Virus record (IMG/VR): IMGVR_UViG_2639762844_000004 | DNA: 36,600 bases | From: a virus | Lineage: Duplodnaviria; Heunggongvirae; Uroviricota; Caudoviricetes | Strand: one strand, 5' to 3' | Shown here: piece by piece, positions 31,664-34,600 of the stretch | How the letters are laid out: every line of letters starts with the position of its first letter | How positions within the stretch are numbered: the first letter of the stretch is position 1 | Made by a program: the position numbers

Positions 31664-34600
31664 TAATTCTGGTCAACGACCAGTTGAGCGGATTCGCGTT
31701 TAAACTCTGCGCTGAAATTTCTTTTTTTCATTATGGCACCTGTGTTGTTCTGAGGTGAGCATATCACCTCTGTTCAGGTGGCCAAATTCAGTAAACCACT
31801 TCAACTCGAGGCGTTTTTCGTTATGTATAAATAAGGAGCACACCATGCAATATGCCATTGCAGGGTGGCCTGTTGCTGGCTGCCCTTCCGAATCTTTACT
31901 TGAACGAATCACCCGTAAATTACGTGACGGATGGAAACGCCTTATCGACATACTTAATCAGCCAGGAGTCCCAAAAAATGGATCAAACACTTATGGCTAT
32001 CCAGACTAAATTCACTATCGCCACTTTTATTGGCGATGAAAAGATGTTTCGTGAGGCCGTCGACGCTTATAAAAAATGGATATTAATACTGAAACTGAGA
32101 TCAAGCAAAAGCATTCACTAACCCCCTTTCCTGTTTTCCTAATCAGCCCGGCATTTCGCGGGCGATATTTTCACAGCTATTTCAGGAGTTCAGCCATGAA
32201 CGCTTATTACATTCAGGATCGTCTTGAGGCTCAGAGCTGGACGCGTCACTACCAGCAGATCGCCCGTGAAGAGAAAGAGGCAGAACTGGCAGACGACATG
32301 GAAAAAGGTCTGCCCCAGCACCTGTTTGAATCACTCTGCATCGATCATTTACAACGCCACGGGGCCAGCAAAAAAGCCATTACCCGTGCGTTTGATGACG
32401 ATGTTGAGTTTCAGGAGCGCATGGCAGAACACATCCGGTACATGGTTGAAACCATTGCTCACCACCAGGTTGATATTGATTCAGAGGTATAAAACGGATG
32501 AGTACAGCACTCGCAACGCTGGCTGGGAAGCTGGCTGAACGCGTCGGCATGGATTCTGTCGACCCACAGGAACTGATCACCACTCTTCGCCAGACGGCAT
32601 TTAAAGGTGATGCCAGCGATGCGCAGTTCATCGCATTGCTGATCGTCGCCAACCAGTACGGCCTTAATCCGTGGACGAAAGAAATTTACGCCTTCCCTGA
32701 CAAGCAGAACGGCATCGTTCCGGTGGTGGGCGTTGATGGCTGGTCCCGCATCATCAATGAAAACCAGCAGTTTGATGGCATGGACTTTGAGCAGGACAAT
32801 GAATCCTGTACATGCCGGATTTACCGCAAGGACCGTAATCATCCGATCTGCGTTACCGAATGGATGGATGAATGCCGCCGCGAACCATTCAAAACCCGCG
32901 AAGGCAGAGAAATCACGGGGCCGTGGCAGTCGCATCCCAAACGGATGTTACGGCATAAAGCCATGATTCAGTGTGCCCGTCTGGCCTTCGGATTTGCTGG
33001 TATCTATGACAAGGATGAAGCCGAGCGCATTGTCGAAAATACTGCATACACTGCAGAACGTCAGCCAGAACGCGACATCACTCCGGTTAACGATGAAACC
33101 ATGCAGGAGATTAACACTCTGCTGATCGCCCTGGATAAAACATGGGATGACGACTTATTGCCGCTCTGTTCCCAGATATTTCGCCGCGACATTCGCGCAT
33201 CGTCAGAACTGACACAGGCCGAAGCAGTGAAAGCTCTTGGATTCCTGAAACAGAAAGCCACTGAGCAGAAGGTGGCAGCATGATACCGGACATTATCCTG
33301 CAGCGTACCGGGATCGACGTGAGAGCTGTCGAACAGGGGGATGATGCATGGCACAAATTACGGCTCGGCGTCATCACCGCTTCAGAAGTTCACAACGTGA
33401 TAGCAAAGCCCCGCTCAGGAAAGAAGTGGCCTGACATGAAAATGTCCTACTTCCACACCCTGCTGGCTGAGGTTTGCACCGGTGTGGCTCCGGAAGTTAA
33501 TGCTAAGGCGCTGGCCTGGGGAAAACAGTACGAGAACGACGCCAGAACCCTGTTTGAATTCACTTCCGGCGTGAATATTACTGAATCCCCGATCATCTAT
33601 CGCGACGAAAGTATGCGCACCGCCTGCTCTCCCGATGGTTTATGCAGTGACGGCAACGGCCTTGAACTGAAATGCCCGTTTACCTCCCGGGATTTCATGA
33701 AATTCCGGCTCGGTGGTTTCGAGGCAATAAAATCGGCTTACATGGCCCAGGTGCAGTACAGCATGTGGGTGACGCGAAAAGATGCCTGGTACTTTGCCAA
33801 CTATGACCCGCGCATGAAGCGTGAAGGCCTGCATTATGTCGTGATTGAGCGGAATGAAAAGTACATGGCGAGTTTTGACGAGATGGTGCCGGAGTTCATC
33901 GAAAAAATGGACGAGGCACTGGCTGAAATTGGTTTTGTATTTGGGGAGCAATGGCGATGACGCATCCTCACGATAATATCCGGGTAGGCGCGATCACTTT
34001 CGTCTACTCCGTTACAAAGCGAGGCTGGGTATTTCCCGGCCTTTCTGTTATCAGAAATCCCCTGAAAGCACAGCGGCTGGCTGAGAAGATAAATAATAAA
34101 CGGGAGGCGGTATGCACAAAGCATCTCCTGTTGAGTTAAGAACGAGTATTGAGATGGCACATAGCCTTGCTCAAATTGGAGTCAGGTTTGTGCCAATACC
34201 AGTAGAAACAGACGAAGAATTTCATACGTTAGCCACATCCCTTTCACAAAAGCTGGAAATGATGGTGGCGAAAGCAGAAGCAGATGAGAGAGACCAGGTA
34301 TGACAACCACTGAATGCATTTTTCTGGCAGCGGGCTTCATATTCTGTGTGCTTATGCTTGCCGACATGGGGCTTGTTCAATGACACCTCAGCAAGAAAAC
34401 GCCCTTCGCAGCATTGCCCGTCAGGCTAATTCTGAAATCAAAAAAGCCAGACAGCATTTTCCGGATAAAAACGTCGATGACATTTGCCGTAGCGTACTAA
34501 AGAAGCACCGCGAAACGGTAACGCTGATGGGATTCACACCGACTCATTTAAGCCTGGCGATCGGCATGTTGAACGGCGTCTTTAAGGAACGGTGAACATG

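Follow-up and report, generated by a model that had tools for sequence, protein, structure and literature searches.

A 36,600-nucleotide stretch of Caudoviricetes DNA (IMG/VR virus record IMGVR_UViG_2639762844_000004), which as a whole is referred to below as the window, carries a complete lambda-type recombination block, cIII-kil-gam-bet-exo, in which the lambda promoter pL and the antiterminator gene N are missing and an IS911-like insertion sequence (IS) stands immediately upstream of cIII. Our analysis indicates that this module is promoterless and that it is most probably a silent orphan left by early prophage decay, and not a new function of the host. Judging from its integrase and gene content, the window is a defective lambdoid prophage of the DLP12 family, probably from the argU site: its integrase region is 99.8% identical at the nucleotide level to intD/xisD of Escherichia coli K-12, its rusA-quuD region is 99.1% identical to K-12 DLP12, and loci that are 99.9-100% identical to it in the genomes of JNE170426 (NZ_AP027217.1) and BEC1-S17-ESBL-07 (NZ_AP022295.1, here BEC1) adjoin tRNA-Arg and fimZ, while the window itself ends at the int stop codon. 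The + strand of the window corresponds to the direction of the lambda leftward (pL) operon.

The integrity of the block was evaluated codon by codon against phage lambda (NC_001416). The five genes are as long as their lambda counterparts and contain neither internal stop codons nor frameshifts, and all five Pfam matches exceed the cut-offs of their families (cf. Table 1). A first-pass annotation of this DNA had described these genes as full length and intact, which agrees with our data, and the alignment to lambda revealed no inactivating mutation in any of the five open reading frames. The same annotation had called them lambda-identical. This holds true for the CIII and Kil proteins, which show no amino acid difference and only a single nucleotide change in each gene, whereas Gam, Bet, and Exo differ from the lambda proteins by three (A56T, L62I, and S101A), one (A255T), and five residues (T2I, V100I, N168D, D192N, and I202M), respectively, that is by nine changes altogether, so "near-identical" is the better description. 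Residues D119, E129, and K131 of Exo, which we take from the lambda Exo structure to be the catalytic ones, are all unchanged and can be read in the translation of the window. Over the whole block, the nucleotide identity amounts to 97.3% with lambda and reaches 99.4% with isolated lambdoid phages (phage 2G7b, 99.4%). The window thus shares with the corresponding part of the lambda pL operon (NC_001416, 31348-33463) the genes, their order and overlaps, as well as the RNA thermoregulator of cIII translation. As for gam, PGAP calls a 98-amino-acid form in identical loci versus the 138-amino-acid long form given here. Downstream of exo, there are homologs of orf60a and orf63, a gene of the TraR/DksA family, a DUF4222 gene, a remnant of xis, and the intD-type integrase gene.

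Table 1. Features of the window discussed in the text (positions are counted from the first nucleotide of the window)
Feature	Position	Strand	Description and evidence
cIII	31845-32009	+	FtsH inhibitor, 54 aa; Pfam Lambda_CIII
kil	31978-32121	+	FtsZ inhibitor, 47 aa; Pfam Lambda_Kil
gam	32076-32492	+	RecBCD inhibitor, 138-aa long form; Pfam Gam, E 3e-64
bet	32498-33283	+	RecT-family annealase, 261 aa; Pfam RecT
exo	33280-33960	+	lambda exonuclease, 226 aa; Pfam YqaJ
cIII translational thermoregulator RNA	31832-31890	+	Rfam RF01804 Lambda_thermo, 88.5 bits, model positions 1-59 of 59 (complete)
Remnant of ea10-cIII intergenic region	31804-31844	+	41 bp, carries the cIII Shine-Dalgarno sequence; alignment to lambda and BEC1
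IS911-like IS3-family element, intact (PGAP: ISEc52 family)	30554-31803	-	1250 bp; right inverted repeat (IRR) at 30554, left inverted repeat (IRL) at 31803
ninX 3' remnant	30490..30553	-	64 bp; left deletion breakpoint; alignment to intact BEC1 ninX (locus L003, 5219-5560) ends at 30553
Terminator-like hairpin with T-rich run	32146-32163	+	between the kil stop and the short-Gam start; terminator scan; fold -11.7 kcal/mol
Terminator-like hairpin, strong	29264-29281		after the porin gene; terminator scan
rusA	29921..30283	-	Holliday-junction resolvase, nin-region survivor; Pfam RusA, E 6e-23
quuD	29315..29698	-	Q-type late antiterminator; Pfam Phage_antitermQ, E 4e-53; PGAP quuD in the 100%-identical JNE170426 locus
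nmpC-type porin gene	28028-29125	+	intact, 365 aa; split by IS5 in K-12 DLP12
intD-type integrase gene	35437..36600	+	387 aa, intact, stop codon is the last base of the window; marks a prophage of the argU/DLP12 site

In contrast to the lambda block, the one in the window is not preceded by pL, nutL, N, or the ea10/ral/sieB genes, and the IS stands in the place of that DNA. When the lambda proteins N, cI, cro, cII, O, P, Ral, Ea10, and SieB were used as tblastn queries, no match was found anywhere in the window, and the same was true for a second N allele and for cI and cro of the sibling prophage of BEC1. A blastn search of the window with the 8.7-kb segment that it lacks relative to this sibling matched the IS alone. 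Since the window covers an entire prophage, from the tail fibers and invertase through to int, the pL, nutL, and N sequences are truly absent and not displaced, and the absence of pL and N noted in the first-pass annotation is borne out: no N and no pL/operator region is present in the whole-prophage window. In agreement with this extent, 24.7 kb of the JNE170426 prophage (invertase, tail fibers, and head genes up to terminase) are 99.98% identical to the window. On the other side of the IS, past the short ninX remnant, the - strand carries a DUF1364 fragment, rusA, ylcG, and quuD, and these are followed by the porin gene on the + strand.

An alignment of the window with five further copies of the element set the ends of the IS. 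Its terminal repeats are TGAAGTGGT...TGGCCACC, and the two ends are identical to each other at 26 of 40 terminal positions, the first nine included, which makes them imperfect inverted repeats (TGAAGTGG...). The orfA gene starts at 31731 on the - strand and encodes 100 amino acids, whereas a -1 frameshift simulated at the A6G slip site (31480-31474) gives a 382-amino-acid OrfAB; these sizes are equal to those stated for IS911 (PMC2909936), and the proteins contain the Pfam HTH_Tnp_1 and rve (DDE) domains. At the nucleotide level, the element shares 95.0% identity with the annotated IS911 of phage Sf6, and 98.8% and 95.6% with the two IS911A fragments in K-12, and copies that are 100% identical to it are labeled "ISEc52 family" by PGAP in other genomes. 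Its sequence points to either an isoform of IS911 or a close sister element, so the name IS911 used in the first-pass annotation is appropriate for the group though probably not in the sense of IS911 proper. The distance of 41 bp between the IS and cIII given there is exact, as the IS ends at 31803 and the cIII ATG follows directly after 31844. IRL adjoins the cIII side, the transposase genes are directed away from cIII, and IRR faces the ninX remnant (ninX'), rusA, and quuD.

This orientation bears directly on the question of transcription. IS3-family elements have an inward-reading -10 box in IRL and an outward-reading -35 box in IRR (PMC3219604). In the window, the outward -35 box (TTGACC, 30565-30560, - strand) points to ninX'/rusA/quuD and thus away from cIII. 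A promoter scan of the + strand found no sigma-70-like site in 29500-34500, and in a weight-matrix scan of the 471 bp upstream of cIII the best score was 7.99, which equals the background (7.0 +/- 1.8 for random stretches of the window), while lambda pL and pR scored 11.4 and 12.1 with the same matrix. Neither of the two scans revealed a -35/-10 pair above background on the + strand upstream of cIII. A promoter borne by the IS, or a hybrid one formed at its end, that faces cIII was therefore rejected on the grounds of the IRL orientation and both scans. Of the two possibilities raised in the first-pass annotation, a silent block or one driven by an IS-borne or hybrid promoter, the former fits these findings and the latter does not. 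The sole consensus-like promoter match on the + strand in 29000-34500 (GTGACA-18-CATAAT, 29449-29478, 10 of 12 positions) lies antisense within quuD, 2.4 kb upstream of cIII. The nearest + strand gene is that of the porin, and the strong hairpin that follows it (cf. Table 1) would be expected to block read-in from there.

At the opposite end of the element, both the transcription of the IS transposase and the outward -35 box aim into ninX'-rusA-ylcG-quuD, the side on which IS-mediated activation of rusA is known in K-12. A hybrid promoter in which the TTGACC of IRR would drive ninX'/rusA/quuD was also considered and rejected, as no -10 box is found at a spacing of 16-18 bp in the window (CTCCGC, TCCGCG, and CCGCGC) or in JNE170426.

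The IS does not appear to have arrived in its present place by simple insertion. Its flanks in the window, GTA and ACT at the breakpoints 30553/30554 and 31803/31804, do not form a 3-bp target duplication of the kind found where this IS has inserted simply at other sites (ATT/ATT, AAT/AAT, ATG/ATG, and CAG/CAG). The lack of a duplication therefore suggests a deletion junction. The DNA that is missing can be seen in the sibling prophage of BEC1, which occupies the same argU site and retains an immunity/replication region of about 8.7 kb with ninX, ninE, a methyltransferase gene, ninB, ren, P, O, cII, cro, cI, and a truncated sieB (sieB'); in the window, these 8.7 kb are replaced by the 1.25-kb IS. 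BEC1 carries the same IS as well, though inverted and located between the truncated sieB and ea10, so a direct origin of the window from the BEC1 arrangement would call for two or more steps, unless the IS inserted independently. On either side of this region, the compared stretches of the two prophages are virtually the same: no difference was found over 31804-36600 (4.8 kb, from cIII to int) and a single one over 27000-30553.

The absence of any difference from an immunity-bearing sibling over the entire cIII-to-int region suggests that the deletion is very recent. There would have been too little time for decay, and the integrity of kil and of the Red genes is consequently uninformative with respect to selection or expression. 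The first-pass annotation had argued that the retention of an intact toxic kil gene is informative, and this argument fails, as the immunity-bearing sibling is 100% identical over the same stretch.

Among 5,426 complete E. coli genomes, the IS abuts cIII only in JNE170426, and there it is 5 bp off its position in the window, while searches of metagenome and species-representative genome collections gave no match to the exact junction of the window. The JNE170426 prophage is likewise located at argU, and its copy of the IS lies between ninX and cIII, oriented as in the window. Its ninX remnant is 233 bp longer, and before cIII it lacks a further 5 bp (ACTCG), with 36 bp being left there. The two prophages are otherwise nearly identical, yet both IS junctions differ (30553/30554 and 31803/31804 in the window versus 7254/7255 and 8504/8505 in locus L001 of JNE170426). 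Derivation of either junction from the other was ruled out, as each prophage keeps DNA that the other has lost, namely the 233 bp of ninX and the 5 bp. These sequences are most simply explained if both lineages descend from one ancestor and each later lost more DNA in a single deletion next to the IS, and the differing junctions suggest that small deletions beside the element have continued on both of its sides. Over 4.8 kb, the only substitution between JNE170426 and the window is W235* in the integrase (TGG to TAG in codon 235; position 36140 of the window and 12836 of L001), which is intact in both the window and BEC1. Targeting of the cIII-side junction by microhomology or by a sequence resembling an inverted repeat was considered too and discarded, since the CTTCA overlap in the blast alignment (31799-31803) is one nucleotide out of register with the true junction.

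We propose the following course of events. An IS911-like element would have sat in the dispensable stretch of the pL operon between N and cIII, upstream of the latter. An IS-associated deletion starting from IRR would then have removed N, nutL, pL, cI, pR, cro, cII, O, P, ren, and the greater part of the nin region up to ninX, and, as it would have stopped at the IS, the DNA past IRL, from cIII-kil-gam-bet-exo through to int, would have stayed untouched. As may be expected from the established biology of lambda, the loss of cI would be survivable only if pL and pR, or the lethal genes driven by them, were lost too. The intact kil gene would thus be tolerated because its promoter was lost in the same step, and the module would still be intact because the deletion is very recent. 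Untranslated antisense RNA is a substrate of Rho, and stray transcripts from upstream would comprise 2.4 kb of antisense, untranslated sequence and so be open to Rho termination. In the absence of N and nutL, the hairpin at 32146-32163, which by its position we take to correspond to lambda tL2c, would further limit transcription into gam, bet, and exo.

Such a course would represent an ordinary form of prophage decay that is already understood. Cryptic prophages offer precedents for such quiescent genes, namely the recombination genes recET of Rac, which need sbcA mutations to be expressed (PMC9504249), kilR, which is silenced by Rho/NusG (PMC5793797), and rusA of DLP12, which is activated by IS2 or IS10 inserted upstream (PMC1636454). 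The block in the window parallels recET and rusA in being a probably quiescent, functional-looking set of prophage recombination genes that a mutation creating a promoter could in principle activate. Unlike activated rusA, however, it lacks an activating configuration, as the outward promoter element of the IS points away from the module.

The IS911-like element was also found in other lambdoid prophages, located at several chromosomal sites. In eight sources (seven complete genomes and the window), copies that are 99.5-100% identical occupy nine positions from 36 to 1353 bp upstream of cIII; the search behind this set was biased to one IS orientation. These copies are located at 30554-31803 of the window, 7255-8504 of L001 and 2810-4059 of L010 (both JNE170426), 12416-13664 of L003 (BEC1), 11255-12504 of L004 (23-AB02114) and L005, 2255-3504 of L011 and L012, and 5787-7039 of L002. 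Two of the nine are flanked by a 3-bp duplication, as in simple insertions, and the remaining seven are not, as in deletion junctions. The accessory stretch from N to cIII is hit by this IS again and again, be it due to target preference, tolerance of insertions there, or selection. Orphaned Red blocks next to this IS recur as well: a second prophage of JNE170426 (L010, 2742534-2751234) and its counterpart in 23-AB02114 (L004) contain a full cIII-kil-gam-bet-exo block that this IS separates from any immunity region, the order being lysis genes, YbgA-family gene, IS, ea10, cIII.

Several points weigh against the view that the module is a silent orphan. We infer both the deletion mechanism and the transcriptional silence, the latter from sequence only, and scans for consensus motifs could miss weak promoters or those that are not recognized by sigma-70. 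The recurrence of promoterless Red modules at the same IS could hint at selection for their retention instead of pure geometry. Finally, the junction destroys a strong hairpin and its U-run ahead of cIII, so one barrier to read-in is lost. In lambda and in BEC1, cIII is preceded by such a hairpin followed by UUUUU, which in lambda is presumably tL2b and folds with -13.8 kcal/mol (z -3.8). A comparison of 31804-31823 of the window with 33484-33510 of lambda (L007, 5985-6011, - strand) indicated that the 5' arm is gone in the window, where the junction falls into the loop and the predicted fold reaches -3.1 kcal/mol; in JNE170426, the junction falls into the 3' arm.

The alternative that survives best, though we regard it as unlikely, is that of conditional read-through, in which Rho and NusG, acting on untranslated RNA from upstream, would keep the module silent until stress relaxes termination and Kil arrests cell division, as does KilR of Rac. 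The OxyS-nusG-kilR cascade and the silencing of prophage genes by Rho/NusG offer a precedent (PMC5793797), the cryptic-prophage proteins KilR and DicB help cells to survive antibiotics (PMC3105296), and the consensus-like site at 29449-29478, 2.4 kb upstream, could feed transcripts into the block. This site, however, is only a candidate promoter, and 2.4 kb of antisense sequence with several hairpins lie between it and cIII. Moreover, the zero divergence from the sibling leaves no signal of selection, and the arrangement is limited to one small clade. A more specific version of this scenario, which we consider quite improbable, assumes stress-gated read-through into cIII and kil, and perhaps gam, that would be aided by the loss of the hairpin before cIII and would result in an arrest like that caused by the OxyS-NusG-KilR pathway of Rac, the recurrent truncations by IS911-like elements being then a route of domestication.

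Constitutive low-level expression of cIII-kil-gam-bet-exo from a promoter at the end of the IS, outward or hybrid, by which the host would gain Red recombination and inhibition of RecBCD, appears very unlikely. It is true that the IS is just 41 bp away from cIII, that IS elements activate nearby prophage genes, as IS2 and IS10 do in the case of rusA (PMC1636454), that the lambda hairpin and U-run before cIII have been destroyed by the junction, and that the ribosome-binding and thermoregulator element of cIII is intact. Nevertheless, it is IRL that adjoins cIII, with its known promoter element directed inward, the outward -35 box (30565-30560) is at the other end, and the + strand upstream of cIII contains no -35/-10 pair above background. 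Furthermore, without nutL and N, the hairpin at 32146-32163 together with Rho would restrict the transcription that gets as far as bet and exo, and constitutive Kil would harm the cell. The least probable proposal, that of an unexpressed reservoir from which superinfecting lambdoid phages take alleles by homologous recombination, with a benefit at the level of the phage, is compatible with the identity of 98% or more between the module and many free lambdoid and Stx phages, with copies covering at least 80% of the query in about 1,364 of 5,426 complete E. coli genomes, and with the reported acquisition of DNA from defective prophages by temperate phages (PMC3945230), but such a role would be a passive result of homology that leaves the intactness unexplained and is indistinguishable from simple recency on the present data.

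Taken as a silent orphan, the locus would represent a snapshot of the early decay of a DLP12-type prophage that is bracketed by the immunity-proficient BEC1 prophage on one side and by K-12 DLP12, as a late stage, on the other. In addition to the integrase, the rusA-ylcG-quuD-porin-lysis block (rusA-ylcG-quuD-nmpC-essD-rrrD) is shared with K-12 DLP12 at 97.6-99.1% identity, and the exoD fragment of the latter is 100% identical to 33681-33986 of the window, that is to the 3' part of exo. Both prophages have lost the immunity region and harbor an IS3-family element at or near the scar. K-12 DLP12 differs in that cIII, kil, gam, bet, most of exo, and most structural genes are lost and nmpC is interrupted by IS5, whereas in the window the Red block and the head-tail region are still complete and the porin gene is intact. 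By this comparison, K-12 DLP12 is recognizable as a further-decayed stage of the same element, with its Red block reduced to the exoD fragment. The window would also illustrate that one IS-linked deletion can take the repressor and both early promoters, leaving a toxic kil gene intact but harmless. If expression of the block were shown, the strain would be a natural Red-proficient host, though nothing in the sequence points there, and the significance of the locus beyond bookkeeping is small. At the far end of the window, in the tail-fiber-assembly/invertase part, a full-length Rfam match to IS009 (RF02111, 226.7 bits) was found at 1039-1237 on the - strand, and the region around it is homologous to tfaD of K-12 DLP12 (96.6%).

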